From positions 128,001 to 192,000 of IMG/VR virus record IMGVR_UViG_3300036987_000310: a DNA stretch of 64,000 bases; one strand, given 5' to 3'. The stretch comes from a virus. Its lineage: Duplodnaviria > Caudoviricetes. The notes below the pieces were generated by a model. That model was not told the origin of the DNA, did no database searches, and saw only the letters and a list, made by a program, of their open reading frames with translations. Shown here one piece after another: positions 836-59,606 of the stretch (position 1 is its first letter; each line of letters opens with the position of its first letter). Made by a program: the position numbers and the translations under genes.

Positions 836-1190
836 CCTCCTGCAGCCATTTTCTGAGCGTGCCTTTGTGTTCTTGGTGTCTTATTTTGACAACTTTCATT
901 TGGCCTTCGGTCATTTCCTCTATGTATGATGCGTGATGCCGAACCGCGATCGGAAGCTTTTCGTGATCGTTGGTCATCACCATGAGATTGTCACATTCGT
1001 ATGCAAAGACAGACTTCGGGCACAAGATGTGTAGCGCCTCGATGAGAATTTCAACTTCTTCATCACGAGCTTCGCGCAGTTTTTGAACAACTAGCGTTGC
1101 GATTTTGTGCCTGCCGCCAAACTCGCTCCCCCAATCTTCCATCACGTCCATGATCTTTAGCTTGTTCAAAAATTCGCGATTGACTATCAT
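795..1190 (-). CDS. Hypothetical protein
   Basis: 131-aa ORF; ATGA overlap with upstream gene. Confidence 0.55.
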   Translation of the reverse strand: MIVNREFLNKLKIMDVMEDWGSEFGGRHKIATLVVQKLREARDEEVEILIEALHILCPKSVFAYECDNLMVMTNDHEKLPIAVRHHASYIEEMTEGQMKVVKIRHQEHKGTLRKWLQEAISFRSSLTPDCG

Positions 1191-1408
1191 GACTCATGCA
1201 CTTTCGACACTTCATACTCTTCGAGAGTTATCTCATTCCATGGGCGCAAAGCCTCAATCGTCATCGACATGTAATGGCTTTCGCAAATCGCCATCGTGTG
1301 TCCAGTTCCGCCGCCAATGTCCAACAGATAGCGATTTGCTTTATTGAAGCAAATCGGGTTGTTTAAACTCCGGCGGCGGAACTGATTCATGTACTCGCAC
1401 AAAATCAT
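1187..1408 (-). CDS. Small hypothetical protein with C-terminal tag (KVHES)
   Basis: Start moved to ATG 1408 overlapping HNH stop; ends EVSKVHES. Confidence 0.6.
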   Translation of the reverse strand: MILCEYMNQFRRRSLNNPICFNKANRYLLDIGGGTGHTMAICESHYMSMTIEALRPWNEITLEEYEVSKVHES

Positions 1409-1917
1409 TCGGCCCCTATGTAAAAAGCCCACAGTTCCGGCACGTCATTTGTTAACATAACCGGTGACGACAGTGGGAGAGACTTTGGCCGAAACGGTTT
1501 CCGCTTGAGTTTCATGCCAGCTTCAAACGGAGTTCTCCCGGCTTTCCGGGAGTTGCACGGGTAACAGCTTGTAACGATGTTTTCCCATTCTGTCTTGCCT
1601 CCGCACCTCTTGGGAACCACGTGGTCATAGTTCAATTCGCGCATCGACAGCTTTCTGCCGCAGTATTGGCACGTAAACTTGTCTCGCGTCAACACATTGA
1701 TGCGACTAAATTTTACGCCACGCTTGTTCACACAAACATTCTTGACTAGTCTGGCGACCGCCGGCATTTTGATGGATGTTGACGGGGACCTGATGACTTC
1801 ATCATACTCTTCGAGCACTTCTATTTTCTGATTGAAGAGTAGAACGATGGTTGTCTGCCAAGGAACGATTCTATGAGGTTGCATCCAAGGAGTTAGCAAG
1901 AGAGTTTGGGTCGACAT
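1405..1917 (-). CDS. HNH endonuclease (McrA-like)
   Basis: RDKFTCQYCG...DHVVP..GG..WENIVTSCYPCNSRK; GGAG 6 nt before ATG 1917. Confidence 0.9.
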   Translation of the reverse strand: MSTQTLLLTPWMQPHRIVPWQTTIVLLFNQKIEVLEEYDEVIRSPSTSIKMPAVARLVKNVCVNKRGVKFSRINVLTRDKFTCQYCGRKLSMRELNYDHVVPKRCGGKTEWENIVTSCYPCNSRKAGRTPFEAGMKLKRKPFRPKSLPLSSPVMLTNDVPELWAFYIGAE

Positions 1918-1984
1918 CGTCATCTCCGTTTCTTCTTTTTCATGGCTGTCTCCCATGTTCAGCTGTTTGTTGTTGGAACTTTGC

Positions 1985-2266
1985 ATGGACATCCGGAAAA
2001 TCGCGTCAAGAGTTGCAGAAGGGTGGCAAGACAAGCTTCACGGGGGTCTTGCCGACGACAACATCCCTGAAAACTTCAACCCTATACAACTTGTCAACGG
2101 ACTTGTCGTAGAGCTTGAACACGTCAACAAAGAAGCTCACGAAATGCTGAAAAATGCTCCAGACGACATTCATAAAGCATTAGAAATCGCCATGGACCAT
2201 CTTACTGAAGACGCGGAGTACTACACCAAGCTCGCGAAAATGGAGGGGGAAGAGTTTGTAGGCTAG
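1985..2266 (+). CDS. DUF5661-like phage protein with N-terminal IAxRVA motif
   Basis: VELEH...IAMDHLTEDAEYYTKLAKME recalled as DUF5661-like; starts MDIRKIASRVA. Confidence 0.65.
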   Translation: MDIRKIASRVAEGWQDKLHGGLADDNIPENFNPIQLVNGLVVELEHVNKEAHEMLKNAPDDIHKALEIAMDHLTEDAEYYTKLAKMEGEEFVG

Positions 2267-2538
2267 GACTCGTCTTTGACGCTTCCGTACCACCCGGCTT
2301 CCATTACTCGTCTTGCCGTTTCTGCCACTGCTTTTTGATCGTCCGCCCGGCCTTTGGCTAAAGACGTCAAAATTTTGCGCAGCAACGCGTCCCCTCTTTT
2401 GCGGGCTTTCTTTTCATCGGACGCAGACAGAGTTTCAAACTCGGCAGCGATGTCTTTTGCCTTCAAAAAAGGTATTTTGTTTGCGACAACAACAGTGTCC
2501 CCATTCGCAATAGCCCTAGCAAACTTGTCGATCTCCAA
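2263..2538 (-). CDS. Hypothetical protein
   Basis: 91-aa ORF, TTG start, convergent with upstream + gene. Confidence 0.5.
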   Translation of the reverse strand: MEIDKFARAIANGDTVVVANKIPFLKAKDIAAEFETLSASDEKKARKRGDALLRKILTSLAKGRADDQKAVAETARRVMEAGWYGSVKDES

Positions 2539-2588
2539 GTCAGTTTCTCCTATTTCCTGTCAAGTTAGTTCACGCAAATACTTTACAG

Positions 2589-2662
2589 TGCTGACGGCGA
2601 GATTCGAACTCGCACTAAACGCGGTTTGAGCACGTCGCCTCTGCCAGTTGGGCTACGTCAGC
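2589..2662 (-). tRNA. tRNA-Leu(CAA), short variable loop
   Basis: GCTGACG/CGTCAGC acceptor, loop CTCAAAC, TTCGAAT T-loop, 5-nt variable region. Confidence 0.9.
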
Positions 2663-2898
2663 ATGACTGTCATCAGGGCTTTCCTGTCTTGCATGGACCC
2701 ACAATTCAATGGACCACACCATCCTTCAGGGCGGTCAAGTTCACATTCATATGGCTTTGTGCGACCAACTTCGTCGATCATGGCAATGACCCCGCACACC
2801 TTGCAAGACGTGTAACCTCTAAGTTTTGCGGTCCATGTATGGCCGCCCATGTCGTAAATGTGCGTGTTTTTGTCGTAGCACATCACGAGTTTGTCCAT
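2653..2898 (-). CDS. HxW...CxxC small protein with tag-like end (TVMLT); stop lies inside tRNA-Leu
   Basis: GHTW...CKVC...LNCG...ALMTVMLT*; last codons CTG ACG TAG are the tRNA 5' end. Confidence 0.6.
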   Translation of the reverse strand: MDKLVMCYDKNTHIYDMGGHTWTAKLRGYTSCKVCGVIAMIDEVGRTKPYECELDRPEGWCGPLNCGSMQDRKALMTVMLT

Positions 2899-2899
2899 G

Positions 2900-3109
2900 C
2901 TATGACTCGTTGACATCTTCCACAACACCGAGCTTGCATTGTGGTTTGTGCTCCCCAATACATTCGCATTCCTCGCATTTTCGGAGGGCGTAGAAAGCAG
3001 AAGCCCCAGCAGGCATTTCTTGTACAGGAAACAATCCTATGGCCATGGACGCCATACTGACTCGATAAGTCGCCGCGTCAGCCAACGCTTGTCTTGCTTG
3101 ACCTATCAT
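2900..3109 (-). CDS. Small protein with capsid-like segment, Cys/His knuckle and tag (DVNES); start uncertain
   Basis: ARQALA...FPVQEMPAGASAFY, CEECECIGEHKPQC, ends VVEDVNES. Confidence 0.55.
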   Translation of the reverse strand: MIGQARQALADAATYRVSMASMAIGLFPVQEMPAGASAFYALRKCEECECIGEHKPQCKLGVVEDVNES

Positions 3110-3131: not shown

Positions 3132-3503
3132 TCAGCTGTCCATGACGTCTGCGACTCTGCATGTGTCAACATCATGATCTCTTTGTTTTTTGCATTCCAC
3201 GCACCAAACACTGAATTCAAACTTCCCATAGATGTCTCTCCATGGGTTGGAGCGTTTGGTGCGTGGAACTATGGCACTGTCGGGACATGCGGCATTCGTG
3301 AACGGTTTTGGGAAGTACGCTCTGACCTCCATCAAGTTTTTTCTCTTAACAACTGTGACAAGGTCAGCTAACAGGTCCCACTTTTCCACTTCTCTCAGAG
3401 TCTCAGCTATTGGGGATTTGATCCATTCCCATTCACTGCTAAAAATGTCGTCTTCGACAAAGTCAAAGTTGGCGGCAAGACGAGTCCCCCACAGTTTCTT
3501 CAT
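3132..3503 (-). CDS. Hypothetical protein with CxxC...H...C knuckle and tag (DVMDS)
   Basis: CVECKKQRDHDVDTCRVADVMDS*; ATG shares the A of the tRNA CCA. Confidence 0.7.
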   Translation of the reverse strand: MKKLWGTRLAANFDFVEDDIFSSEWEWIKSPIAETLREVEKWDLLADLVTVVKRKNLMEVRAYFPKPFTNAACPDSAIVPRTKRSNPWRDIYGKFEFSVWCVECKKQRDHDVDTCRVADVMDS

Positions 3504-3640: not shown

Positions 3641-4171
3641 CTATGCGTCATGGATTTCGTATGGAACCCAATACTCGTCGTGTGCTTGCATGTCCTGTGG
3701 TCTGTCAATCCCCCAGAATGAAGCCACCTCACCATACATTTGGGGATTACATAGGTCTAACCGTCTCCAAGAAATCAAGACGTTCAATTCGTCGCTATTG
3801 TCAAGTTCGTCGATGACTTTCCCCATAAATCTTGCGAAGTCCCCTTCGCACAGAACTTTTCTCTCAAAAACTCGCACTTCGACAGACCCGGCTGTGACTC
3901 TGATTGGGTCAACCTGGGCTTCAGCTATCGGATCAAGTTCTTTATACCAGATAAAGTCAAGCTTTTCCCGGATGTCTTCTGCCGCGTCACACCCCAACTC
4001 GTAGTCAGAGAACTTTTCCAGTTCAGCAGCAAGAGCATTAAACCTGTCGACTATGACTTTGCGTTCAAACCTGTCCAATTTCAAACCCCATCCGGGCCTC
4101 GTCAAAACATCGAATCTGTGAACTGAATTCAAACTAGGAATGTAACACCCGCGAATTCTAGGCTTGCACAC
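3641..4171 (-). CDS. Hypothetical protein with tag (EIHDA)
   Basis: 176-aa ORF ending YEIHDA. Confidence 0.6.
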   Translation of the reverse strand: MCKPRIRGCYIPSLNSVHRFDVLTRPGWGLKLDRFERKVIVDRFNALAAELEKFSDYELGCDAAEDIREKLDFIWYKELDPIAEAQVDPIRVTAGSVEVRVFERKVLCEGDFARFMGKVIDELDNSDELNVLISWRRLDLCNPQMYGEVASFWGIDRPQDMQAHDEYWVPYEIHDA

Positions 4172-5072: not shown

Positions 5073-5273
5073 TTATGCCCTGGCGTTTTCTTCACATGAA
5101 AGCTTCACGAGAATCTGTTCAGTTTTGAGTGGACATCGAAGCGGCAACAGATGACTGCGCGCACGCTCTCCGCTTATCGAACATTCGTTCGGAATGCCGC
5201 TTTCATTCCGAACGAATGGGCACGATGGACATGAATCTATTGCGATGATTCTGATGTTCTTCTCGGTGTTCAT
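5073..5273 (-). CDS. Small Cys-rich protein
   Basis: Start moved to ATG 5273 (ATGA overlap); SCPSCPF...C...CPL. Confidence 0.55.
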   Translation of the reverse strand: MNTEKNIRIIAIDSCPSCPFVRNESGIPNECSISGERARSHLLPLRCPLKTEQILVKLSCEENARA

Positions 5274-5512
5274 GACTCCATGACTCCCATCAGAATGCCA
5301 GTCTCGCATCCATTTTCCGGATGCTTCATGTGATTTCGGCTTCCCGGTTCCAAAATGATTAGAGCTTCGCACTCTGGACACGTTATGTAATCTCTCGGGG
5401 CCCTTCTCGGCTGAGACATCGCTTTTGCCAGCTCAGCCCTTCCTTGCGGAGTCGATAAGTATTTGGAGATGATCGGGTCTAACTGCGGCGTCAGTTCCAT
5501 CGAATCCTCCAT
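5270..5512 (-). CDS. Small protein with capsid N-terminus-like segment, Zn knuckle and tag (GVMES)
   Basis: IISKYLSTPQGRAELAKAMSQPRRAPRDY, CPEC...H...C, ends ILMGVMES. Confidence 0.7.
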   Translation of the reverse strand: MEDSMELTPQLDPIISKYLSTPQGRAELAKAMSQPRRAPRDYITCPECEALIILEPGSRNHMKHPENGCETGILMGVMES

Positions 5513-9015: not shown

Positions 9016-9088
9016 CGCTTCCGGCAGGACTTGAACCTGCAATCTCGCGGTTCGGAGCCGCGTGTCTTGTCCGTTGGACTACGGAAGC
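9016..9088 (-). tRNA. tRNA-Arg(CCG)
   Basis: GCTTCCG/CGGAAGC acceptor, loop CTCCGAA. Confidence 0.9.
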
Positions 9089-9101
9089 GTATTATCAAAA
9101 A

Positions 9102-9517
9102 TGATTGAAATCCTGGAGGAATTTGAAGAAGGACGTTTAGGAGGAGAGCCTGAAGCTTTGGGCGCGGGCGATCTTATTCTCAACATCGTCAAGGACGTGC
9201 AATCGCTAGACGCCAGTTTAGTATGGATCGGAAAAGATTATGCGACTTGGAGCTTGAACGAAGTCAAGATACGGGTTGACACAAAGCGGAGCCATTCATA
9301 TGCTCCATTGTTTGAAGAAGAGTTTCTTCAATGGCTGTCCTCGGCAAATCAGACACTGGACGGCTTCGGAAGAAAGCGGACGATGGAAGCTTTCCAAATG
9401 TCGCTTCCCGGCAAGTTGAGCATAAGCCATTCGGCAATGATCGTTGTTGGATGGGAAGAAGATGAGAGTCACCAGGATGCAATGCTACTGTCTATAGGGG
9501 AAGTTATGAATCAATAA
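9102..9517 (+). CDS. Hypothetical protein with tag (EVMNQ)
   Basis: Start moved past tRNA to ATG 9102; ends SIGEVMNQ. Confidence 0.6.
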
Positions 9518-9524: not shown

Positions 9525-9908
9525 TTAGCAGTCGTGGATGTGCATGAGAAGCAAAGCCCCAGGAGTCATGGCGTCTCTCGGCATCGTCACCATGTACGAC
9601 CTCGTCACCATGTACGACCCTGTGCCTTTCCATTCGATTGAAATTTCATATGAAGCATGAACTTTCACGCAACTAAACAGAGGCACCGGAGTTTTGTCTT
9701 TGCATATTCGCTTGTTTCGCTTTTCAAAATGCCGCTTCACCCATCCGGAAATCTTTTTTACTGGCTTGCGGCCCAAGTTTGCCATGCAGACGGCGTTCAC
9801 GACAGGACGCGCCCACTGGGGTGGCGGACCGTCACCCCATGTCCAAGACACTGGGGTTGACACCAGTGTCAATGAATTCAAATATGTAGCAAACGGTCCA
9901 ATTGCCAA
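9525..9908 (-). CDS. Hypothetical protein with tag (HIHDC) and 18-bp tandem duplication at 9584-9619
   Basis: SYMVTR repeated; ends LLMHIHDC. Confidence 0.55.
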   Translation of the reverse strand: MAIGPFATYLNSLTLVSTPVSWTWGDGPPPQWARPVVNAVCMANLGRKPVKKISGWVKRHFEKRNKRICKDKTPVPLFSCVKVHASYEISIEWKGTGSYMVTRSYMVTMPRDAMTPGALLLMHIHDC

Positions 9909-10663: not shown

Positions 10664-10963
10664 TCAAAGTTGGTGAATCATTAAGGCCATGACCTCCATC
10701 GTATCGCGCCCATCTTCTGGACTTAATTCAAACTCCAAATCGCACTCCCACTTGTCCCAATGGAGAACCCCAGCCAAATCAAGCTCCCCGTTGCATGCAA
10801 GATCATACAATTTTTTGTTTTCATACAAAACCTTTGCCAGATCCAAGCCCCACCCTTCTTTTCGGAATCTTTTTTCTCTTTTTCCGTTAGAACCAGTCCA
10901 TGTCACCAAAGCTTCTGTTGGTCCGAAAAGAAGAACCTGGTTTACACGTATTCGAGCGCTCAA
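10664..10963 (-). CDS. Hypothetical protein with tag-like end (MIHQL)
   Basis: 99-aa ORF; ATGA overlap. Confidence 0.6.
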   Translation of the reverse strand: MSARIRVNQVLLFGPTEALVTWTGSNGKREKRFRKEGWGLDLAKVLYENKKLYDLACNGELDLAGVLHWDKWECDLEFELSPEDGRDTMEVMALMIHQL

Positions 10964-11595
10964 GAGTTTTGAACCTTTTTGACTGATTCATACCGCTCCC
11001 GCGCCGCCTTCTCTGCCTCCATTTCTTTTTGGTGCGATCTGCGAGTGTGATACTTTTTGTCTGAAAGGGCACCGATCGACTGCATGCATAAAAACACGAC
11101 AGTCCACAAAGCGAAGTCGCCCCCAATTGAAGCAGACCACTGCCGCTTGTTTTGGGAATGGTATCCGCAAACAAGGTTTTCTGGAAATCCCTCGAAATAC
11201 ACGGAGCGCAGTTCGTCTCCTGTATAGTCCGGCTCCGGCGGAGGAATTGTCTTGAACAGAGGTCCGAAGTCGGCTTTGATCGGCTCTTCGCTAAGAACAG
11301 TCAGCTTCCAACCAAAGAAGTTGTTCCGCACTGTGAACGAAATGCTGAAATCCTGCCTGGTGATTTGCACCACCGGAAGCGTTATAGATTTTGACGTATG
11401 AGTCGAAATCACGCGCGCTATTTGCTCGTCTTTTCGTTCGTAAAAGTTCATGCCGCTCTCGACAAGAGGCGTCAACTCGTCACGAATGAATTCGATTTGG
11501 GTGCCGAAGGCTCCCTTCCACAGCATCTCGTCGCCACAGATTTGTTCATTGACCCAATCTTGCAAAGGTGTTCCATTCAAAATTTTCTTTTGCAT
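10960..11595 (-). CDS. Hypothetical protein with tag-like end (KVQNS)
   Basis: Start moved to ATG 11595 because the track ORF runs through tRNA-Gly. Confidence 0.65.
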   Translation of the reverse strand: MQKKILNGTPLQDWVNEQICGDEMLWKGAFGTQIEFIRDELTPLVESGMNFYERKDEQIARVISTHTSKSITLPVVQITRQDFSISFTVRNNFFGWKLTVLSEEPIKADFGPLFKTIPPPEPDYTGDELRSVYFEGFPENLVCGYHSQNKRQWSASIGGDFALWTVVFLCMQSIGALSDKKYHTRRSHQKEMEAEKAARERYESVKKVQNS

Positions 11596-11641
11596 GATGG
11601 TCCATACTTTCACGGGCGAGTTATTTACAATAAGGTACTTG

Positions 11642-11722
11642 AGCGGGTGACGGGAATTGAACCCGCCGTGGCTTTCGCCCCCAGCATGGCAAGCTGGTGT
11701 CCCTCCATGAGACATCACCCGC
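11642..11722 (-). tRNA. tRNA-Gly(GCC) with long variable arm
   Basis: GCGGGTG/CACCCGC acceptor, U73, loop TTGCCAT, extra arm GGC-GAAA-GCC. Confidence 0.85.
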
Positions 11723-11726
11723 AATT

Positions 11727-12032
11727 CTATCGTCGGTTCACGCTGTTGCCAGCCCAGACGTTCCCTTGAACATTCCCGCATTTCACGCTATTGCCTCCTT
11801 CAACATCTCCATGAACTTCTCCACATTCGATAGAGCAGTCTGATTCAACTGAAGCCAGCGGGCCTTCCCACAGAATTTTGACATCGCCTTGCAAACCAGT
11901 TTGGACTGTGACACCATCCACTTGCACGACCCCGTTTTTGATCGTGACGTTATTGCCCTGGACAACTGTTGTTTTGCCATTGACAGTAATTCTGGTAGAT
12001 TGTGAAGGCGGCGTGCGGAAAGGGTTTCTCAT
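11727..12032 (-). CDS. Small beta-rich Gly/Val/Asn protein
   Basis: ITVNGKT..VQGNNVTIKNG...GDVEGGNSV low-complexity beta repeats. Confidence 0.65.
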   Translation of the reverse strand: MRNPFRTPPSQSTRITVNGKTTVVQGNNVTIKNGVVQVDGVTVQTGLQGDVKILWEGPLASVESDCSIECGEVHGDVEGGNSVKCGNVQGNVWAGNSVNRR

Positions 12033-12532: not shown

Positions 12533-12808
12533 GTGGACCCTGTAATTTTTTGCATGGGAAAGCCAACGCATGAACTCGTCGTGAAGGATGTCGAAACCGG
12601 AGACTATGGAAAAATTGGCGTCGGATGGATGGACGACAAAGATGGATATGTGTCCATTAAGCTAAACCCATGCGTTGTCGTGTCGTATGAATCGTTGAGA
12701 GACAAAGTTCTCACGCTTTTTCCGATTAAAACCGACAAAGAATGGGCATCGTTTCACGCCAAAAAGAACAGGCAAAAAGCAAAAACCGAGTCAGAGTCAG
12801 AGTCATGA
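12533..12808 (+). CDS. Hypothetical protein
   Basis: 91-aa ORF, GKIGVGW..KDGYVSIKLNP. Confidence 0.6.
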   Translation: MDPVIFCMGKPTHELVVKDVETGDYGKIGVGWMDDKDGYVSIKLNPCVVVSYESLRDKVLTLFPIKTDKEWASFHAKKNRQKAKTESESES

Positions 12809-13063
12809 AGCCATGACTTGCTCTGGAGCAGACTCCTCGCAAGTCGGCATGTCGCCTTTCTCCGTGCGCCTAGACAGAACAACCCTGTCCCCCTCAGTCC
12901 AGATTTTCAACCCGCAGTCTTTGCAGTTGTGGGTCCAGTCGTGGTCGCCACGCACGGGCCACCATCTGTGAACAGGAAGTTTTTTGTCCTCGTTGCGCAC
13001 ATACTCCAACAATCGGATGTGAGATGGCGGATAAACAAAGTTTGGATCCTTTTGATCAAACAT
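12803..13063 (-). CDS. HxW...CxxC small protein with tag (QVMAS)
   Basis: VHRW...HDWTHNCKDCG...PTCEESAPEQVMAS. Confidence 0.65.
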   Translation of the reverse strand: MFDQKDPNFVYPPSHIRLLEYVRNEDKKLPVHRWWPVRGDHDWTHNCKDCGLKIWTEGDRVVLSRRTEKGDMPTCEESAPEQVMAS

Positions 13064-14660: not shown

Positions 14661-15083
14661 TTATGAATCCATGACTGCAGCCATCATTTTGTGACCGTCT
14701 TTTTCTAGCCACGGAAGATAGCTGTAAGCTTCCGGCGAGTCGTTTCCAAACCAGACCCAAACGTCGTCTTCAAGTCTTCCAAGCCAAAAAACAATGTCAT
14801 GCCATGGCTTGAATGATGGTTCTGCATGGTTTCGAAGCCACACGAGCAATTTGCCTGTTATTTTTGCTGGAATAGCAAGATAACAGGATTGGCTGCCCCA
14901 TTCGACGTCAACGTGGACGATCAAGTGGTCCGATGTTTGGGACCAAAAGTTCTTTCGCATACATAAGCGCACGAAGCTCCCAACAGCCAACGTTCTCCCA
15001 ACCCCGACGATTTCGCTATGGTGCGGATACTCGCCATGATAGTTCCATGAGTACTCGGGTTCGTGCGAGTCTGCGCTTTTCAA
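14661..15083 (-). CDS. Hypothetical protein with tag (AVMDS)
   Basis: Ends MMAAVMDS; start uncertain. Confidence 0.55.
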
Positions 15084-20400: not shown

Positions 20401-20415
20401 TCGTTGTGGACCTTT
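20371..20415. repeat. 45-bp direct repeat, copy 1 (41/45 identical to 21395-21439)
   Basis: Aligned by eye; four mismatches. Confidence 0.85.
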
Positions 20416-20467
20416 AAGCAACACACGCGCTCCCACCGGAAACCTATCAGGAAGGAACTTTTCCGGT

Positions 20468-21415: not shown

Positions 21416-21439
21416 GGTTTCTATTCGTTGTGGACCTTT
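21395..21439. repeat. 45-bp direct repeat, copy 2
   Basis: Covers the KVHNE* tag of the upstream gene and the ARH start. Confidence 0.85.
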
Positions 21440-46115: not shown

Positions 46116-46502
46116 TCATTCGTCCATGACGTCATACACCAGAAACGCGTTGACAGCGGTTAAAAGATCCTCAGCTGTCAGTTTGTCAACTGGAGGAAGA
46201 TGTACTTCCAAATTTTTCTCGCGAAACCTTTGAATCACGATTGTGGCCCACCGGTTGTCGTTGAAGTCTTCTGAGTTGGAGAACCTAAGCAAGCATTCGC
46301 TGTGACTAACAACCAAGGCGAACCACGCGCGCCATCCGCGCTCTTCGATTGAAAATTTGAATGTGAATCCAGAAACTTCGTCGTTTTGCTTCAGATGATG
46401 GAACGCGTCGTTCACCATCTGTTTCCGAATTCCGTCGTCCCCAATGTCGTCTACGTCGATGAAGATCGACAGCGCCTTGACAACATCTGGGTGCAGATTC
46501 AT
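46116..46502 (-). CDS. Hypothetical protein with tag (DVMDE)
   Basis: ATGA overlap at 46502; ends FLVYDVMDE. Confidence 0.7.
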   Translation of the reverse strand: MNLHPDVVKALSIFIDVDDIGDDGIRKQMVNDAFHHLKQNDEVSGFTFKFSIEERGWRAWFALVVSHSECLLRFSNSEDFNDNRWATIVIQRFREKNLEVHLPPVDKLTAEDLLTAVNAFLVYDVMDE

Positions 46503-46693
46503 AGCGTGATCTTTACCCAAAATGTCCCACGGTTGTTTTCTTCCATGATAAGGTCCACAGAAACCTCATCTTGTTCCATCATGCAAACCGTCGGACGAAT
46601 GCCAATAGGTAGCATCCCGTTTGCGGAAAGATTCATCAGCGCTTGAAGCACGGCCTGCATGATCAACGCTTTGAATTCTGTTTTGTTCATCAT
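46499..46693 (-). CDS. Small hypothetical protein
   Basis: 64-aa ORF coupled on both sides. Confidence 0.55.
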   Translation of the reverse strand: MMNKTEFKALIMQAVLQALMNLSANGMLPIGIRPTVCMMEQDEVSVDLIMEENNRGTFWVKITL

Positions 46694-47070: not shown

Positions 47071-47373
47071 CTATGCCTCCATGACCTCCATGACTTCATA
47101 ATTCACTTTGGTGAGGTCGGACACCAACACAGAAAATCTTTGAGACGGAAATTGTAGCAGAGACGACCAATGCACAGTCATAACTCGCGGAGAGTCGGAC
47201 GAGTTTTGCTTGATGTTAACACTGAAAGTTGCCACGACAGAGTTTGACTTTAGCTCTTCCATAACCCCATGAGCCATTGAGAACTGTGAGTCTGGCGGAG
47301 CGTCTCCAACATTCTTCATGGAGAGCGCTTTCACGATCTCCATCGATATGGAATGACTTGGCCCTGTCAACAT
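47071..47373 (-). CDS. Hypothetical protein with doubled tag (EVMEVMEA)
   Basis: Ends NYEVMEVMEA; GGAGGC/GCCTCC hairpin over stop. Confidence 0.65.
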   Translation of the reverse strand: MLTGPSHSISMEIVKALSMKNVGDAPPDSQFSMAHGVMEELKSNSVVATFSVNIKQNSSDSPRVMTVHWSSLLQFPSQRFSVLVSDLTKVNYEVMEVMEA

Positions 47374-47740: not shown

Positions 47741-48019
47741 TCAAGACTCGTGGGTCCCACGCAGAAGAGTGTCAGTGCAAGACTCATATGGGTCGTCGCA
47801 CATGTTCGGGTCTTCAAACGAGGAACACGTGACCTTGAGGCTGCACCGCCTGCACTGATAAGAAGCACCCGCAGGAGCATATCCGAGAAACACCCACTCA
47901 TGTTCTTTAGTCGGAGAGACAGACACCTCTCCCACAGGATCGGGGGCTCTCACTTTCCACAGGTCTTCTGGAAGCGGGCCCGGGTCTTCGCCCGAATCGA
48001 AAAATGGATCGTTTCCCAT
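47741..48019 (-). CDS. HxW...CxxC protein with tag (GTHES)
   Basis: EHEW...CRRC...SCTDTLLRGTHES. Confidence 0.65.
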   Translation of the reverse strand: MGNDPFFDSGEDPGPLPEDLWKVRAPDPVGEVSVSPTKEHEWVFLGYAPAGASYQCRRCSLKVTCSSFEDPNMCDDPYESCTDTLLRGTHES

Positions 48020-48027: not shown

Positions 48028-48360
48028 TTACAACTCTTGGATTTTTTCAACGAGAGTTTCGCCACAGTTTCGAATGGGGCCGACTGCCCACCCGAGGCTA
48101 TGTTCTCCAAAAAATACCTTGAAGAATGCTTGTGCACTTGTGTGCGGCACGCGCCATATCATGACATCGCACACGGAGCATTTCATTGTGTTCATTTCAA
48201 TCAGCTCCCAAGAATGGCTCCCGAAGAATTTTCGCACATGCTTTTCCCAAACTTCCCACGTGGCAACCTTTTGCTTTTTTGGCCAACTCTTCCACACATG
48301 AGAAAAGCCGGTCATACGAGACTTTCTCATTGAGGCCGCCGACTTTTTTGGGAAACTCAT
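48028..48360 (-). CDS. HxW...CxxC protein with tag-like end (KIQEL)
   Basis: SHSW...CSVC...RNCGETLVEKIQEL. Confidence 0.65.
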   Translation of the reverse strand: MSFPKKSAASMRKSRMTGFSHVWKSWPKKQKVATWEVWEKHVRKFFGSHSWELIEMNTMKCSVCDVMIWRVPHTSAQAFFKVFFGEHSLGWAVGPIRNCGETLVEKIQEL

Positions 48361-48599
48361 TCGTCCATGATCTTTTTCACTGAAATTTCGTCAGCTGCAC
48401 ACCTCAACAAGTCTGCCAAACCCTTGGCTTTCTCGACAGGAAGCGGGATGGAAAAACTTCCTGTGGGGGTGTCGGCAAGCATCACGATCATCACTTTGGA
48501 GTCTCTTTGCACAGACATAGGACGCGATATGTCTAAAGAAGCGTCCATGAGCTCCACCCATACGGTCCTACCTGCGTGCTCGACGATTCTTCGGGCCAT
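48357..48599 (-). CDS. Small protein with tag (KIMDE)
   Basis: Start moved to ATG 48599 (TGATG overlap). Confidence 0.6.
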   Translation of the reverse strand: MARRIVEHAGRTVWVELMDASLDISRPMSVQRDSKVMIVMLADTPTGSFSIPLPVEKAKGLADLLRCAADEISVKKIMDE

Positions 48600-49849
48600 C
48601 AGGTTCGGCGCAAGTATGCGACGGCAATGCGGACAGTTTCCTGGAAATTGATGGCGCCGATGGCCATGAGCTTTTCGCACGAAGCGAAAATTTCCTCCAA
48701 GTCTTCCTTCATCTTCCCAGTCCCAGAGTTGTTCAACGCTTGTTCAAGTTCCGACACCCTTTGTTGCCACTTGCGAAGCGCCAGCTTGAGCGTCTCATTT
48801 TCAGCTGCATACATCTTCGCGAGCTCTGCATCGTCAGACGCCTTGGTGGGCGGAGGTTCCGGCAGAGCCTCTTTCTCGGCCACTTCCGACGCAGGAGAGG
48901 CTGGTTTTTCCGCATGAGAGAATGCGGTTTTCCCAGGCCTGGTTCGGGCGCTGTCATACCATGTCTTAAACCATGCCGGGCACCGCGGAGACTTGGACGC
49001 GGAGGACGCGAATTTTATCAGCTGATCCACGCTGTCTGGCCCTTCTCCGCCAGGCCAGATCTTCTTCACAGGCTCCACGATGTCCTTGTACAAGACGTTC
49101 TTGTTTCGACTGTCCATCACGAATTTCAAGATTTTTACAAGCTCTTCATCCGTCATGTGCCGCATCCCGTGGATCGTTTCTCTCTTTTTGCTCACTGCGG
49201 GTCTTCCTTCCTTCGCCCATTTTTTGTAAAAATCCGGGCAGTCTGCGCGACTGAGGATGTTCCCCAAATACGATCGAAGTTGGTTTCCCCCAGTCAATTC
49301 CCCATGAACCCAGTATTGCCGCAACTCCGGAACCATTTGCGGGTATCCAATTCCTTGCCCGTGAAGGCGCATCATGTGTCGAAGCATTGCTTCGATTTGA
49401 TCATTGGGTACAGCTCTCGTAGTGGGATCAGGCATATGGTCTTCTCCAGCGTTGGTCTCCAATGTTTCGTTGAGATTCTCAGGCTCGAACTCAAGCTTTG
49501 CGAGTCTGTCCGGCAGCAGTTTGTCCCACAGCGAAGCCTTCCTGGACAGGCATATCAACGGAACGCCTGACCTGTCCGCCAAGTCCTTAGCGTTTTTTAA
49601 CTCGCCATGACTTGAGATTTCGTGCATGAAAAGGACCGTGTCCCCGTTGACGCTTTCCATTAAAGCAGCGCCTTTCGGGTGCATAATTCTGTCTACTTGA
49701 ATCCCTCTCGCCTCAAGTTTCGGAACTATGGAGTCGTTCAGAAACTTCATGGGGAATTTGCTAATCAGCGTGGCTCGCAAGACCGGTTCTTCTTGGTCTT
49801 CCACGAGGTTTGTCAACAGTCCTGGAGCTGAGAATGGCTTTGATCTCAT
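48599..49849 (-). CDS. Multi-domain protein with DUF2325-like N-terminal region, internal repeat and coiled coil
   Basis: DTVLFMHEISSH...GVPLICL; repeated CP.[FW][YF]K.W segments; C-terminal coiled coil. Confidence 0.6.
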   Translation of the reverse strand: MRSKPFSAPGLLTNLVEDQEEPVLRATLISKFPMKFLNDSIVPKLEARGIQVDRIMHPKGAALMESVNGDTVLFMHEISSHGELKNAKDLADRSGVPLICLSRKASLWDKLLPDRLAKLEFEPENLNETLETNAGEDHMPDPTTRAVPNDQIEAMLRHMMRLHGQGIGYPQMVPELRQYWVHGELTGGNQLRSYLGNILSRADCPDFYKKWAKEGRPAVSKKRETIHGMRHMTDEELVKILKFVMDSRNKNVLYKDIVEPVKKIWPGGEGPDSVDQLIKFASSASKSPRCPAWFKTWYDSARTRPGKTAFSHAEKPASPASEVAEKEALPEPPPTKASDDAELAKMYAAENETLKLALRKWQQRVSELEQALNNSGTGKMKEDLEEIFASCEKLMAIGAINFQETVRIAVAYLRRT

Positions 49850-49906: not shown

Positions 49907-50116
49907 TTACGTTTCCATGATCTCAGCACATATTTCAGCGTGGTATTCCTCGAACTTCTGTTCAAGCTGAGACTTCAAATCAGAAAGTCTGGCATCGCGC
50001 TCTCTACACTCAATGGCCCCCCGGTCAAACATGTGACGGACATCGCATATGTTCAAATAGATGCGATACATTTGTTGCACTAGGTCGGACTGCGCCAAAG
50101 CGTATTTGACCGTCAT
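49907..50116 (-). CDS. Small protein with tag (EIMET)
   Basis: Ends ICAEIMET. Confidence 0.55.
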   Translation of the reverse strand: MTVKYALAQSDLVQQMYRIYLNICDVRHMFDRGAIECRERDARLSDLKSQLEQKFEEYHAEICAEIMET

Positions 50117-50121
50117 TGACG

Positions 50122-50400
50122 CTAAGACTCCATGACGTGATTCAAAGCGCTCAAAATCGGACAGTCTTCATGTTTAGAGGGGTCATACCCATGCCAGACC
50201 TTGTTGCACACAGAGCATTTCCACGTTGGAATGTGAACAGCTGTATAAGTCGACAGCGTTTTAAAACCTGGTGTCGAAATATACTGAAGATGCCATTCGT
50301 GGGGAAATTTTGAAAGCATAGGGTATGCTTTCCAATACGCTGGAACTGGAGATAAAGGAGGAGACCATGCCATCGATTCATTATGCGTCGGACTTTCCAT
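50122..50400 (-). CDS. HxW...CxxC protein with tag (HVMES)
   Basis: PHEW...CSVC...KHEDCPILSALNHVMES. Confidence 0.65.
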   Translation of the reverse strand: MESPTHNESMAWSPPLSPVPAYWKAYPMLSKFPHEWHLQYISTPGFKTLSTYTAVHIPTWKCSVCNKVWHGYDPSKHEDCPILSALNHVMES

Positions 50401-51772: not shown

Positions 51773-52126
51773 CTATGTCAACATTACACGCGACACGCAT
51801 GATTTTTTCAACCCGGTCAAAATGTTTCGGAACCAAGCTTTGATCGACTTTGTGTGGGAAAGATAAAAACGGCGACGAACTCGCTCAGATGCTAGGCCGC
51901 TGTTATCGTACGTTTGGATGAGAACTTCGACTCTCCAGTTCAGTCTACAAAGAGGAACACAGATGCTAGTCCTCACCGTGGCCAGTTTGACTCTTCCCGC
52001 CTGAATTCTGAACACGAAGTAAGACCGTTTAGTGGTTTTGAACCCGGAGTCCCAACTCATTTTCTTCATGGAGCGCGTGAGTTGGGACCTTAGGCGCCTG
52101 AGCTCCTTTATGATGCTGGCGTTCAT
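51773..52126 (-). CDS. Basic hypothetical protein with tag-like end (RVMLT)
   Basis: 117-aa ORF. Confidence 0.55.
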   Translation of the reverse strand: MNASIIKELRRLRSQLTRSMKKMSWDSGFKTTKRSYFVFRIQAGRVKLATVRTSICVPLCRLNWRVEVLIQTYDNSGLASERVRRRFYLSHTKSIKAWFRNILTGLKKSCVSRVMLT

Positions 52127-52188: not shown

Positions 52189-52401
52189 CTATCCGTCCAT
52201 CACCTTCTGCACCGTCCACTCGTTTCTTGCAACTTCTCTGCAGTTAACATACTCAGACGGCGGCTTGTCGTACAATTGCAAATCGTCCGTCCAACAAACC
52301 CCTGGCGCTCCATGCACCATGGCGCCGCATTTTTCACAGCATCTTCGAACGGAGCCATACGGTTGATCTCGCTGAGTCACAAGGTGTAAAATTTCGGTCA
52401 T
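52189..52401 (-). CDS. Small Cys protein with tag (KVMDG)
   Basis: CCEKCG...NCREV...VQKVMDG. Confidence 0.6.
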   Translation of the reverse strand: MTEILHLVTQRDQPYGSVRRCCEKCGAMVHGAPGVCWTDDLQLYDKPPSEYVNCREVARNEWTVQKVMDG

Positions 52402-52600
52402 GAGACAGGTCCCTCGCTGGCCGCCAAACGTGTCAAAACTGGTTCGCAAAAACGGAATGCTCTTAGATTCGAAGAGGAGGCATCTGGCTTACTGCCCGAC
52501 ATGCCTCTTAGACATGCACCCATCATATTTCCCAAAACATTCAGAAAGCGAATGCTTGTCTTTTCAGCTTGAAATCGTTGAAGACGTTCAAGACGACTGA
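52400..52600 (+). CDS. Small CxxC...H...C protein with tag (DVQDD)
   Basis: CPTC...H...H..ECLSFQLEIVEDVQDD; start may be ATG 52457. Confidence 0.55.
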   Translation: MRQVPRWPPNVSKLVRKNGMLLDSKRRHLAYCPTCLLDMHPSYFPKHSESECLSFQLEIVEDVQDD

Positions 52601-53146
52601 TCATGACTCTTGAATTTCTTTGCACTGACCTTCTCGAGAACTGTTGACGAATCCGAAGTAAAACTCCCACAGCTCGATCGCATTGGTGCGAAACCAGTTT
52701 TCATTGTCCACTGATTGAATGGACGGTTCAACGACGTACGTCCAAAAAAGCCGGTGGGCTATGTCTTCTGACGTTTTAGGGTCACACGAGTTGGCGGCTT
52801 TGGCAAGCATTAAGTCTTCTCTTTTCCCGGTGACTCTCATAGAATCCAAGATCGTTTTGGTAGTTATGGGCCCGCTACATTTGACGACCAGACCATGTTT
52901 TGTTTCCACAGGAACTTGTGGATCCGCCCACACTCCGGGCAGGGAGACCAGACCGTATTCTGTTTTTTGAAAAATCATGTCCATGCATATCGCCCAGTAT
53001 TCGCCGACAGTTTCAATCCAAAATTCCAGCACTTTTTTCTCCTCGGACCACTCGACGTCTAGCGGAGAGACTCGCATGGAGAAGATTACTTTTCTGTCCA
53101 TGAAACAAGTTACATGTATTGTCCAAAATGGTTGCAAGAATACCAA
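52601..53146 (-). CDS. Hypothetical protein with tag (EIQES)
   Basis: 181-aa ORF; start uncertain. Confidence 0.6.
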   Translation of the reverse strand: MVFLQPFWTIHVTCFMDRKVIFSMRVSPLDVEWSEEKKVLEFWIETVGEYWAICMDMIFQKTEYGLVSLPGVWADPQVPVETKHGLVVKCSGPITTKTILDSMRVTGKREDLMLAKAANSCDPKTSEDIAHRLFWTYVVEPSIQSVDNENWFRTNAIELWEFYFGFVNSSREGQCKEIQES

Positions 53147-53559: not shown

Positions 53560-53755
53560 TCACTCGTTCATCACAGCTTGCACAAATCTGCCGTCGCACG
53601 TGGCGGGAATCCCTTGATTCTCAAGATCCAAGATTGCGTCGCGGATTGTCGAGTTCGGGTTGTTTGTGGCCGTTATTTTCAGGCCGCATCGTTTGCAAAC
53701 GAAAAAAGTTTCTGAAGCGCCTGAATTCTTTCACTACTCCCCATGAGTGGTTCAT
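53560..53755 (-). pseudogene. Frameshifted HxW...CxxC gene with tag (AVMNE): +1 shift at TTT-TTT-CGT
   Basis: MNHSW...RNF then +1 frame FVCKRCG...TCDGRFVQAVMNE*; span 196 nt = 65 codons + 1. Confidence 0.55.
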
Positions 53756-53976
53756 GATTTCATGACTTCCATTAGATGAATAGTTTCTTCAGGAACTTCT
53801 TCCCAGTCAAAAGTTCTTTCCCTTTGGGACACCGGGTCAATCCAGCATCCGCTCCATACGTTGATCATGTCCATCGCGCAATCATCGCAATATTGAATAA
53901 GCCTTCCGTTCAACATGAACACTCTAGTGGCTTGATTTCCACAACAAGCGCTAAGACTGTGACGAAAACAGTTCAT
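53752..53976 (-). CDS. Small Cys protein with tag (EVMKS)
   Basis: CCGN...YCDDC; ends IHLMEVMKS. Confidence 0.65.
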   Translation of the reverse strand: MNCFRHSLSACCGNQATRVFMLNGRLIQYCDDCAMDMINVWSGCWIDPVSQRERTFDWEEVPEETIHLMEVMKS

Positions 53977-55864: not shown

Positions 55865-56191
55865 TCAACTGTTCATCACAGTTCTGGCGCAAACCCAAAG
55901 ACGGAGTTCCACCAAAGCGTCTTCAATCTCAGGACTGGTTGGCGCGTTTCCACCAATCTTGAGAAGCTCCCCGGATTCCAGCATTTTTCCATATTTGTGC
56001 TTGGTTCCGTCGGAGTCCATCGTTGCCAACATAAAGATTCTGTGCGGCCTGCAAAAACTTTGAACAGGCTCATGTGGCTCGAGAACGGCCATGACCAAAA
56101 GAACAACCCCGTCTCCTATGGGACGGGCCCATTCATACTCTTTTTGACGAGACTGCATTGACAACATACTCTGGAACGGTTCCCCGTTCAT
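55865..56191 (-). CDS. Hypothetical protein with tag (TVMNS)
   Basis: Ends VCARTVMNS. Confidence 0.6.
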   Translation of the reverse strand: MNGEPFQSMLSMQSRQKEYEWARPIGDGVVLLVMAVLEPHEPVQSFCRPHRIFMLATMDSDGTKHKYGKMLESGELLKIGGNAPTSPEIEDALVELRLWVCARTVMNS

Positions 56192-57547: not shown

Positions 57548-57548
57548 G

Positions 57549-57752
57549 TCACCACTCAATTTCCACGCCGTGCTTCTCGGCTTCTCGGCGAATGTGTTCT
57601 TCCAAAGCTTGCGCCGCAGACACATACTCGTCGTAAGCTTTGCGAAACTCAAGGTCGGAGATCTCCTCGAAAGAGGAATACTGCCTAAAGCAATAATCAA
57701 ACCCATCGTTGTCGATTTTGAACAGCACATTTTCGACTTGATCTTTTGTCAT
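57549..57752 (-). CDS. Small acidic hypothetical protein
   Basis: Start moved to ATG 57752; IDNDGFDYCFRQYSSFEEISD. Confidence 0.65.
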   Translation of the reverse strand: MTKDQVENVLFKIDNDGFDYCFRQYSSFEEISDLEFRKAYDEYVSAAQALEEHIRREAEKHGVEIEW

Positions 57753-58795
57753 ATCAAATTCCCATCCTTGTCTATGCAGGCCACGAATCCGTGCCCCTCG
57801 ATGTTGAACCTTGTCGGATAAGTTTTGCGGAAAGAGTCTCGAAAAGTTCCGGCCGGAGCATATGGAAACGATTCGACTCCCCCCAAAAACTCGTGCATGT
57901 GAACGACGCCTGCCGCTTCCGGGTGATTTTCGAGCACATACCACAGCAGTGGAGCATTCATTGTGGCTTTGTCCCCGTACGTCACGACAAAGTCGTCCAC
58001 AACACGGACGACCGGGCATACATTCGACAAAAGTCTCGGGCCCTTGATTCTTGGAGTAGTCAGCATAAGACCATTCTTGCACCTCACCGCAAGAGACCCA
58101 AAATGCTTGCTTCCCGCGGCCCACCGCCGTTCAAACATCCAAGCATACCTGGCCAGGAGTTTGCTCATGAAGTCGTGCGCATTTTGATCCTGTTCAACAA
58201 GGCCCTCCTTAACCGTGTGGAAATGAACGTCTTCCACCATAGCCCGAAGCTCAGCGTACAACCTGTCAAACTGGTCTTCAAACCGAAGCACAGCGCCGTC
58301 AGGGAAGCACAACATCTTTAGACGAAGATTGCTTTTGTCGTTAGCTATGACTGCATGGGCCCTAGACCTGTCTATCAGTTCCTGAGCCTTGACTATTGTT
58401 GAAGCCTCTTCTTCTCTCGAAGTGAGCTTGCATCCGATGAGCTTGCATTTCGGGTTGGCTTTCCGAATCTCGTCTATGATGTATGGGGTTCGAACAAGCT
58501 TCACGGACACTTCGTCCATGCATGTTGGCATTTTTCCTTCGAACGGCTTTTCCGGAACGTAGTTTGTGACTGCTGCAGCCATCACAGCAGCGTCCGAAAT
58601 TTTTGCCAAATTTATGCACGATTCTAGGTATGCCCGCCATTCCATGTTGTGAATGGACGTCACCTCATGTCCGTGACTGCGCAAGTAGTCTACAAATTGG
58701 AGAGCCCATTTTCCGCGCGCCAAATTGGAAAAAATTTTGTTGTCGTCAAGTTTTCCAAAAACGGGACCGGACGTCACTAGCACTTTTTTCGACAT
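57749..58795 (-). CDS. CoaB/DFP-like ligase domain fused to class II aldolase-like domain
   Basis: VLVTSGPVFGKLDDNKIFSNLARG, MAAAVTNY, KLIGCKL; then GSLAVR...TTPR...NAPLL...VVHMH. Confidence 0.75.
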   Translation of the reverse strand: MSKKVLVTSGPVFGKLDDNKIFSNLARGKWALQFVDYLRSHGHEVTSIHNMEWRAYLESCINLAKISDAAVMAAAVTNYVPEKPFEGKMPTCMDEVSVKLVRTPYIIDEIRKANPKCKLIGCKLTSREEEASTIVKAQELIDRSRAHAVIANDKSNLRLKMLCFPDGAVLRFEDQFDRLYAELRAMVEDVHFHTVKEGLVEQDQNAHDFMSKLLARYAWMFERRWAAGSKHFGSLAVRCKNGLMLTTPRIKGPRLLSNVCPVVRVVDDFVVTYGDKATMNAPLLWYVLENHPEAAGVVHMHEFLGGVESFPYAPAGTFRDSFRKTYPTRFNIEGHGFVACIDKDGNLI

Positions 58796-58838
58796 TTTAC
58801 GACTCTTGAATTAACAGCACTATGTGTCAAACCACACT

Positions 58839-59054
58839 TCATGCGTCATGAATTTCCATGATCAAAAGTTCGTCTCTTGTTTTTTCAACAAATTTCTTTG
58901 ACCAGCGTCCCTCCATCCCAGTCAATAGAAGAAACGTGCGCGCATGCTGGCCGCACCTTGCGTGCAGAACTTCCTGCCTAGGCTCTGACTCCAAGAACCA
59001 TCTGACCGCGACTTTCGAACACTCCGGTATTCCGCATTTTTGCGGAATTTTCAT
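58839..59054 (-). CDS. Small Cys/His protein with tag (EIHDA)
   Basis: CGIPEC...RCGQH; ends LLIMEIHDA. Confidence 0.65.
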   Translation of the reverse strand: MKIPQKCGIPECSKVAVRWFLESEPRQEVLHARCGQHARTFLLLTGMEGRWSKKFVEKTRDELLIMEIHDA

Positions 59055-59114
59055 CCGAACAGGTCCTTCCAGACCCCGTAAAGAATGAACAAAATCCGCT
59101 GGTATGCTGGTATT

Positions 59115-59606
59115 TTACTCATTGTGTATCTCGAATAACGCCACCTCGTCCTTGTCGAGCGTCATAGCTATGTCAAACCGATTTATTGTTTCGTGTTTCG
59201 CACATCTCGGGTAAACCCTGTCAAATTTTGACACATGCCAAACAACGGCATCGCGTTCACATGTCAAACTATGAGTCGGATTTTCTGCCATGAAATGTCC
59301 ACAACGCTTTTCAAAAACTCTGAAATTGTTCTTTATGGCGTTTGGGGAGCTTCCGTACATCAGCCCAAAGTTCAAATGTTTTTCACTCGACATGACGGAG
59401 TCTATTGTGAAAAATGCTTCGTTAACAGTTTCTGCCATCTTTTCAAAAACAAGTGTGAAAGCCGATGGAGCGCAAAATTTCATTCCAACGTTTTTAACAC
59501 CCGGCATCGGGTTGCAAACGTGCAGTTCCGATTTGCAAGACTCTGCCAAAAGACTCATGAGTCGAATTTCCATTTGAGAATAATTGGAATTTCGCATGTT
59601 CATCAT
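59115..59606 (-). CDS. Hypothetical protein with tag (EIHNE)
   Basis: Ends VALFEIHNE. Confidence 0.65.
   Translation of the reverse strand: MMNMRNSNYSQMEIRLMSLLAESCKSELHVCNPMPGVKNVGMKFCAPSAFTLVFEKMAETVNEAFFTIDSVMSSEKHLNFGLMYGSSPNAIKNNFRVFEKRCGHFMAENPTHSLTCERDAVVWHVSKFDRVYPRCAKHETINRFDIAMTLDKDEVALFEIHNE

Follow-up and report, generated by a model that had tools for sequence, protein, structure and literature searches.

The closest described counterparts of the proteins analysed here are vWA-MoxR systems linked with a zincin peptidase and with small, fast-diverging proteins in which a C-terminal peptide, FxSxx-COOH, is conserved (PMC7159879; the FxSxx-COOH type is that of Haft & Basu 2011, as cited there by Kaur, Burroughs, Iyer & Aravind 2020). 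[quoted passage not shown] We found that about one fifth of the genes in a soil jumbo phage and its tag-bearing relatives encode a shared C-terminal tag, nearly all of them specifying small proteins without an assigned function. The genome is 376,674 bp (~377 kb) with 513 called genes, and the window analysed is a stretch of 64,000 nucleotides from it.

We compared the tagged proteins to the FxSxx-COOH systems. As in those systems, the small diverging proteins of the phage conserve only a C-terminal peptide in fixed register, and a zincin metallopeptidase and a MoxR AAA+/vWA pair are in the neighbourhood of the tagged genes. In contrast, the motif in the phage is V/I-M/H/Q-x-x, not F-x-S-x-x, RxD or an acidic run, peptidase and vWA protein are a single fusion, each genome has ~100 tagged genes rather than one or a few, and the bearer is a phage rather than an actinobacterial conflict island. 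None of 97 tagged proteins matched an FxSxx-type NCBIfam or Pfam family. NorQD is similar in that an extreme C-terminus is read there by a MoxR ring, and an intact MoxR/vWA pair travels with the tagged proteins here. However, the tail in NorQD is on the vWA cofactor itself, whereas the tag is on ~100 separate proteins. In phage T4, too, small hypervariable proteins that are otherwise unrelated share a short conserved peptide, the capsid targeting sequence. We rejected a signal of that type, which is N-terminal, cleaved by the prohead protease and present on few proteins; the tag is strictly C-terminal and on ~20% of genes. We found no description of such a tag in the literature.

The tag was recognised in a first-pass annotation of the window, and all 32 of the C-terminal peptides quoted there translate exactly at the stop codons given for them. 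The observation was borne out across the whole genome, far in excess of chance. The strict motif [VI][MH][EDN][SEA]-stop was at 32 of 513 gene ends, compared to 0.12 expected from the internal rate (~260-fold; Poisson P ~1e-65), and the loose motif [VI][MHQ]xx-stop was at 99 of 513, compared to 5.0 expected (20-fold). Among unselected ORFs, used as a control, the strict motif was at 8 of 3,434 ends (0.2%), and these eight look like missed genes.

The shared end had been described correctly, but the tag is longer than was noted. The conserved unit is the final 12-15 residues, with information climbing from about -15 to maxima at -7, -4 and -3. That is, V, I or L is at -7, V or I at -4 and M, H or Q at -3, followed by exactly two residues, mostly E/D/N and S/A/E, before the free carboxylate. 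The tag is an acidic amphipathic helix, and no conservation was found upstream of -16 in the tagged proteins. In AF2 models of two tagged families, the tag was in a terminal helix with confidence dropping toward the end, beside a body that was modelled confidently. In family Y, a long helix that was modelled with confidence ended in the tag.

Several results agree with the claim that selection acts at the level of the peptide. Third-codon positions in the tag had 0.07-0.2 bit, indicating that wobble is free, and there was no conservation in the 43 nt 3' of the stop (<=0.09 bit). Codons within the tag were used as in the genome overall, and all three stop codons were used in genome-like proportions. 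Register was absolute: among 2,056 proteins there were 167 strict matches at offset 0 and 0-1 at offsets 1-6. Because wobble is free, nothing past the stop is conserved and the register is absolute, selection acts on the peptide. A requirement for a free C-terminus is supported. Tagged orthologue pairs were 64-75% identical at -4, -3 and -10, compared to 30% in the body.

The gene caller found 32 of 108 genes in the window to be tagged. Unless indicated, the ORFs given here are on the minus strand and were found both by translation and by gene calling. From the start of the window, they end in KVHES (1187..1432, 81 aa), the variant TVMLT (2653..2958, 101 aa), DVMDS (3132..3503, 123 aa), EIHDA (3641..4171, 176 aa) and GVMES (5270..5512, 80 aa); an ORF overlapping the second of these (2900-3229, from translation) ends in DVNES. 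EVMNQ is on the plus strand (9062..9517, 151 aa), followed by three ORFs from gene calls: HIHDC (9525..9908, 127 aa), which was absent from the first-pass list, the variant MIHQL (10664..10963, 99 aa) and KVQNS (10960..11781, 273 aa, without a Pfam family). Farther along are QVMAS (12803..13063, 86 aa), AVMDS (14661..15083, 140 aa), DVMES (15087..15269, 60 aa) and the variant EVWES (17171..17572, 133 aa), whose orthologue in genome G001 ends in EIMNS. TIMDT (18178..18555, 125 aa) and EVMTA (18516..19034, 172 aa) are on the plus strand. They are followed by DIMDV (19836..20066, 76 aa), DVMEE (20068..20496, 142 aa), KVHNE (21421..21690, 89 aa), EVLES (21639..21863, 74 aa), which has L at -3 as do many members of a tagged family of 175 aa, and HIHES (23621..24403, 260 aa, without a significant Pfam family).

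The remaining tagged ORFs in the window end in DVMDE (46116..46520, 134 aa), EVMEA (47071..47373, 100 aa), GTHES (47741..48019, 92 aa; a variant with T at -4), KIQEL (48028..48360, 110 aa; gene call), KIMDE (48357..48680, 107 aa), EIMET (49907..50116, 69 aa), HVMES (50122..50400, 92 aa), the variant RVMLT (51773..52126, 117 aa; gene call), KVMDG (52189..52449, 86 aa), EIQES (52601..53146, 181 aa), EVMKS (53752..53976, 74 aa), TVMNS (55865..56191, 108 aa), EIHDA (58839..59054, 71 aa) and EIHNE (59115..59606, 163 aa). The ORFs at 15087 and 48357, both on the first-pass list, look real and were skipped by the gene caller. The listed ORF at 53560 is doubtful because it is <40 aa when counted from its first start codon.

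The carriers are largely unrelated to each other, as had been stated. With the last 15 aa trimmed, only 17 of 87 tagged proteins fell in any BLASTP family, all of them small, and 54 of the 87 were without a homologue in any of the other three. Pfam gave no match for 93 of 97, and the other four are ankyrin-repeat paralogues. With these counts (17/87 and 4/97), the carriers do not make up a single paralogous family or share a domain. They are small, soluble and hypervariable, with bodies of 55-628 aa and folds that include ankyrin repeats, a beta-rich domain and zinc-ribbon-like proteins. That recognisable enzymes and structural genes lack the tag is supported by both the Pfam results and gene location: tagged genes are only in accessory blocks, apart from the head genes, and the tag is confined to the accessory proteome. 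It is also portable between unrelated proteins. It has been gained and lost between orthologues, and core proteins have acquired it by substitution in a single lineage (e.g., G001 159484-160209). The four ankyrin-repeat paralogues resemble poxvirus PRANC and Legionella AnkB proteins in having a variable binding domain and a short conserved C-terminal docking element. However, the tag is 12-15 residues and not an F-box, and no ubiquitin ligase is involved, because the Ubl/E1 set of this phage is missing from the tag-rich genome G003.

We compared the phage to three complete relatives (362-436 kb) and to two more distant relatives, LR745208.1 and Tunturi_5 (sampled as its first 150 kb, 198 genes). 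In the complete relatives, 73 of 433, 91 of 524 and 123 of 586 genes were tagged (17-21%). The tag was on 1 of 619 genes of LR745208.1 and on none of the 198 sampled from Tunturi_5. It is restricted to one clade of soil jumbo phages.

The MoxR AAA+ ATPase gene (genome 234511-235617) and the gene for the vWA-zincin metallopeptidase (genome 229187-230722) are ~101-107 kb downstream of the start of the window. Both are intact, with HExxH, the DxSxS MIDAS, and Walker A and B present. All four tag-bearing genomes have them as core genes and both tagless relatives lack them, although this co-occurrence alone is weak evidence because 69 genes are in all tag genomes and absent from tagless relatives. 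The pair is within the densest tagged island, tagged genes surround it in four genomes, and a promoter-like motif of that island is also present at MoxR. The few conserved tagged families cluster near these genes, and tagged families X, Y and Z flank them in all four genomes. In a distant lineage of 33% GC, homologues of X, Y and Z likewise flank MoxR/vWA and have the tag-like ends VLED, VMYG and IINS. Family Y has kept [VIL][MLQHIV]xx-COOH in 107 of 111 diverse representatives. The tag is absent from the end of the phage vWA protein itself (FGRVAPLR...). Against a link to this pair, V-M tags were not seen in Sinorhizobium phage Phosso or Salicola phage SCTP-2, though MoxR/vWA-peptidase pairs are present in both, and N4-like phages have weak homologues of the vWA-peptidase. 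The published proposal for the pair in jumbo phages is a role in virion assembly (PMC7824862).

The tag had been proposed to be an address label at a free C-terminus, possibly read by a TPR- or PDZ-like protein. Peptide-level selection, the fixed register and portability favour the label. A phage-encoded TPR/PDZ reader did not emerge: Pfam identified no such protein among 59 clade-specific core genes (in all four tag genomes and absent from the two tagless relatives). Our tentative proposal is that the tag is a portable docking signal for one common receptor, with the phage's own MoxR AAA+ and vWA-zincin metallopeptidase as the leading candidate. It is also possible, but in our judgment unlikely, that it is an address label or degron for a different receptor, which could be an AAA+ protease or chaperone of the host or some other protein of the phage. 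Like the tag, ssrA (ClpX), PTS1 (SKL-COOH, read by the TPR protein Pex5) and the EEVD-COOH of Hsp70/90 (read by TPR or J-proteins) are portable signals at the exact chain end with one reader for many clients; they differ from it in sequence, and its scale in a single viral genome is far larger. ssrA/ClpX-type degrons and EEVD-type chaperone docking typically have a fixed register at a free C-terminus, and chaperones or proteases could plausibly take orphan proteins as clients. However, the tag matches the ssrA degron in position and not in its non-polar, LAA-like last residues; chain ends here are polar (S/A/E), whereas ClpX, Tsp and FtsH favour non-polar ends. A full-length DnaJ homologue encoded by the phage (genome 82103-83011) might be such a receptor; it would hand orphans over to the DnaK of the host or set the time of their turnover. 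DnaJ with its J, zinc-finger and C-terminal domains is in all four tag genomes, and the match in LR745208.1 is to the J-domain only. Yet the gene is in the replication block, away from the tagged genes, and synteny on a par with that of the X/Y/Z-MoxR-vWA module is absent.

The other explanations seem less probable. The tag might have no shared partner and be a C-terminal helix for folding or self-association, left under the strongest constraint from a single ancient family that diversified explosively. Some tagged proteins do form small paralogous families, and the long helix of family Y is compatible with this, but the differing body lengths and folds, the end of conservation by -16 and the appearance of the tag by substitution in single-lineage core proteins make it improbable; a structural helix alone also needs no exact spacing to the chain end. 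We consider it very unlikely that the tag packages small effectors by binding the procapsid interior, for ejection together with the DNA. The internal proteins of T4 are hypervariable effectors with a common short targeting peptide, the HK97-fold shell of encapsulins is bound by C-terminal tags on their cargo, and a capsid this large offers many binding sites. However, ~100 cargo species would be without precedent, the tagged genes are distant from the head genes, and tagless relatives keep homologous portal and head genes. Encapsulin cargo peptides match the tag in being C-terminal on unrelated proteins but not in their GSL-type consensus, and they tolerate trailing residues, whereas register here is absolute. 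Least probable is that the tag acts as a nascent peptide in the ribosome at termination (in pausing, coupling or recoding). This would fix the register to the stop, and a span of ~15 residues would match the upper exit tunnel, but stop-codon use at tags equals that genome-wide, small genes with and without the tag showed no consistent difference in the spacing or orientation of the downstream gene across four genomes, and the i, i+3, i+4 hydrophobic pattern suits a folded amphipathic helix.

The MoxR/vWA-peptidase machine of the phage may be what reads the tag. If so, the final 12-15 residues would dock unrelated, fast-evolving soluble orphan proteins onto one receptor, which would read the tag helix jointly with the chain end, perhaps at the vWA MIDAS site or at the MoxR pore loops. 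The docked protein might then be remodelled or cleaved, or its bound partner might be passed to the machine. To our knowledge, ~100 different clients would be far above the number for any MoxR/vWA system. Beyond what was first recognised in the window, the tag characterises an entire clade of jumbo phages, and the oldest of its bearers show synteny with the MoxR AAA+/vWA-zincin peptidase pair.

We confirmed that a shared C-terminal tag ends many otherwise unrelated proteins of this phage, and found that the tag extends to a clade of related phages. A single virus record of 376,674 bp (about 50% GC) contains the window, at bases 128001-192000. For gene calling we used our own heuristic, an in-frame hexamer model that had learned from long ORFs of the same genome. 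It yielded 513 genes occupying 92% of the sequence, and counts may be off by a few per cent. The C-terminal peptides listed in the first-pass annotation were all present, and 32 of 32 translate as stated. A strict form of the tag, [VI][MH][EDN][SEA]-stop, ends 32 of the 513 genes genome-wide. Based on its internal rate (27 occurrences in 112,573 internal positions), 0.12 would be expected. That is, the motif is enriched about 260-fold at chain ends. A looser form, [VI][MHQ]xx-stop, ends 99 genes, compared to 5 expected. The strict motif also ends 8 of 3,434 unselected ORFs. These resemble genes missed by the caller, which brings our estimate for the genome to about 105 tagged genes, of which the window has 32-34. 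Genome-wide, GGAGGTGA dominates as the ribosome-binding motif of upstream regions, and 62% of stop codons are TGA.

Relatives in IMG/VR have portal proteins 67-84% identical to that of this phage. More distant portal relatives are those of the uncultured huge phage LR745208.1 (46%), Tunturiibacter phage Tunturi_5 (36%), and Bacillus phage G (28%). In three complete relatives, ends matching [VI][MHQ]xx were found in 73 of 433 genes (G003; 362 kb, portal identity 76%), 91 of 524 genes (G002; 393 kb, 73%), and 123 of 586 genes (G001; 436 kb, 73%), with 80 of the last being strict matches. The same pipeline found 1 match in the 619 genes of LR745208.1 and none in the 198 genes of the first 150 kb of Tunturi_5. 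These two tagless genomes double as negative controls, and their 0-1 matches rule out an artefact of gene calling.

The tag has a defined anatomy. Counting back from the chain end, information content in the tagged set climbs from about position -15, peaks at -7 (V, I, or L), -4 (V or I), and -3 (M more often than H, and H more often than Q), and there was no conservation beyond -16. Glutamate is frequent at -10, -5, and -2, and serine, alanine, or glutamate at -1. The i, i+3, i+4 spacing of the hydrophobic residues is consistent with an amphipathic helix. Among 2,056 proteins from the four tag-bearing genomes, the strict motif lies at the chain terminus in 167 cases, and each of the offsets 1 to 6 has one case at most. 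Because this register is absolute, the chain end must belong to what is recognised.

The motif could in principle act in DNA, as a promoter, terminator, or recombination site. However, third-codon positions in the tag are nearly free, codon choice follows genome usage, and all three stop codons are used in genome-like proportions. In addition, the 43 nt after tagged stops are not conserved. Free wobble positions and the unconserved sequence after the stop rule out a DNA-level motif and bear out the earlier proposal that selection acts on the peptide. Translational coupling to the next gene was also rejected, as downstream spacing showed no consistent difference.

With a median length of 125 aa, tagged proteins are small, and they are also soluble; a TM-like segment was found in 1 of 87, compared to 24 of 337 untagged small proteins. 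Their genes are confined to accessory blocks (about 100-270 kb and 360-370 kb of the genome) and are nearly absent from the structural and replication blocks. With the last 15 residues removed, only 17 of 87 fell into any BLASTP family. The only Pfam matches among 97 scanned tagged proteins were four ankyrin-repeat paralogues (genome 208420-209913 and 221146-221619), all ending in QKVM[SN][AT], and scans with PHROGs and NCBIfam added almost nothing. We found no close relatives of two tagged proteins when searching IMG/VR by peptide patterns, and one tagged protein had no match in five related genomes.

We compared tagged proteins between genomes. No homologue was found in the other three genomes for 54 of 87, and 21 had one only in the closest relative. 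Sharing is more frequent among untagged genes, with about 150 of 426 common to all four genomes. In 53 pairs of tagged orthologues, the bodies are 30% identical and positions -4, -3, and -10 are 64-75% identical. Among the 193 metagenomic homologues of one 175-aa tagged family, about 115 of the 120 listed end in V-[MHLQ]-[ED]-[SA]. The tag has also been gained and lost between orthologues. The protein encoded at 242813-243739 of the genome under study ends in LLDEVHES and its orthologue in G003 ends in LIEAEEP. A core protein of G001 (159484-160209; L094-L095) ends in TVKEVMES in that genome only, and has orthologues in all relatives, including tagless LR745208.1; this is apparently a de novo gain through substitutions in an existing C-terminal helix. 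Gain and loss between orthologues and conserved ends on diverged bodies show that the tag is portable, convergently acquired, and strongly maintained.

In the AF2 model of the 175-aa family, the body is beta-rich and confident (block-averaged pLDDT about 80-95) and the terminal helix (residues 165-174) has a pLDDT of only 60-65. The model of a second tagged family, Y (241 aa, mean pLDDT 94), has a long C-terminal helix with confidence dropping across the last ten residues. Fold searches of both models against the PDB gave no significant match.

The reading that best fits these properties is that the tag is an address label. We looked for its reader among 69 genes found in each of the four tag-bearing genomes but in neither tagless relative. 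Neither a TPR nor a PDZ protein turned up in a Pfam scan covering 59 of these. The possible readers that emerged were a MoxR AAA+ ATPase (AAA_5; genome 234511-235617), a zincin peptidase (DUF2201_N) with a vWA domain (genome 229187-230722), a 108-aa J-domain protein (genome 91128-91454; L005), a full-length DnaJ homologue (genome 82103-83011; L005) with J-domain, CXXCXGXG zinc finger, and DnaJ_C, and a papain-family cysteine protease (Peptidase_C1, 268 aa; window 27568-28374, minus strand). Both J-domain proteins are conserved across the clade. The protease gene lies directly upstream of the fibre gene cluster; each of the four tag-bearing genomes keeps it and the tagless relatives lack it, and the family is unusual in a phage. 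Also clade-core are a PurZ-like adenylosuccinate synthetase homologue and an adjacent MazG-like/YfbR-like HD gene pair (genome 92644-94097 and 279057-280241; L005, L012). The pair could be MazZ/DatZ partners, which would point to a 2-aminoadenine genome.

MoxR and vWA-zincin stand out among the candidates for several reasons. Their motifs are intact: Walker A and B are conserved in four MoxR orthologues, and HExxH and DxSxS are invariant in 110 vWA-zincin homologues. Tagged genes are at their densest at 205-246 kb, where they make up over half of all genes, and the pair are the best-conserved untagged genes of this island. The upstream motif TCGGAAG-N12-GCGCGTATCGG is common to MoxR and tagged operons of that island. 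Three tagged families, X (about 205-275 aa), Y (about 241-256 aa), and Z (about 260-276 aa), flank the two genes in all four genomes and belong to the few tagged families common to all four. In a distant 33%-GC lineage (L109), homologues of X, Y, and Z, ending in VLED, VMYG, and IINS, again flank MoxR and vWA-zincin. Two other lineages with the pair have VMES-type or VMKE/VMAQ-type ends nearby. A profile search with family Y gave 128 cluster representatives, 111 of them full-length; 107 of the 111 end in [VIL][MLQHIV]xx-COOH and 98 have V or I at -7. Three distant members lie on contigs of only 1-7 kb, uninformative on gene context.

The promoter-like TCGGAAG motif, which is not sigma-70-like, lies 10-40 nt upstream of ribosome-binding sites at genome 212-254 kb, outside the window (L009-L011). 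Its 13 intergenic copies occur only in the central tagged island, on both divergent arms. Sigma-70-like promoters, considered as timers of tagged genes, were not enriched over shuffles.

Synteny and co-occurrence point, tentatively, to the MoxR/vWA-zincin module as the reader of the tag, a proposal we rate somewhat below even. No V-M tags were found near the MoxR/vWA pairs of Sinorhizobium phage Phosso and SCTP-2, and weak vWA-peptidase homologues also occur in N4-like phages. Two adjacent small proteins of Phosso (L112 365-807) end in EMGWD and EMGWY; these ends may represent a local C-terminal motif of another kind. A predicted complex of the vWA-zincin protein and a 175-aa tagged protein with Mg and Zn scored 0.02, below the mark, and argues neither for nor against binding. 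A Ubl/E1/JAB set was ruled out as reader, as it is absent from tag-rich G003. A host protein might instead be the reader.

If the MoxR/vWA-zincin module is the reader, the tagged orphans might be interchangeable adaptors to it, a phage-encoded system of modular targeted proteolysis, although we think this unlikely. Each tagged body would grip its own host protein, such as a defence protein, and the common tag would plug the adaptor into the machine, which would remodel or cleave the captured target. There would be about 100 fast-evolving substrate receptors per genome. The logic would parallel that of viral ankyrin/F-box adaptors; the phage version would differ in being built on a MoxR/vWA peptidase.

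The vWA domains of MoxR systems have been proposed to capture substrate peptides, and some conflict systems of the vWA-MoxR type are linked with a zincin peptidase and with small proteins that diverge rapidly and end in a conserved peptide, FxSxx-COOH (PMC7159879). The MoxR/vWA-metallopeptidase pair is known in jumbo phages, with a proposed role in virion assembly and no mention of a tag (PMC7824862). Our literature search found no description of a tag of this kind in jumbo phages. The tagged orphans are so far without annotation. If one receptor reads the tag, a handle of 12-15 residues would open about 100 orphan proteins in each genome to experiment, with hundreds more throughout a widespread clade of soil jumbo phages, and the whole class could be pulled down, tracked, or destabilised together. 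If that receptor is the MoxR/vWA-zincin module, this would be a first function for a pair found in many large phages, and the theme of a conserved C-terminal peptide with vWA-MoxR and a zincin would reach from bacterial conflict systems to viruses.
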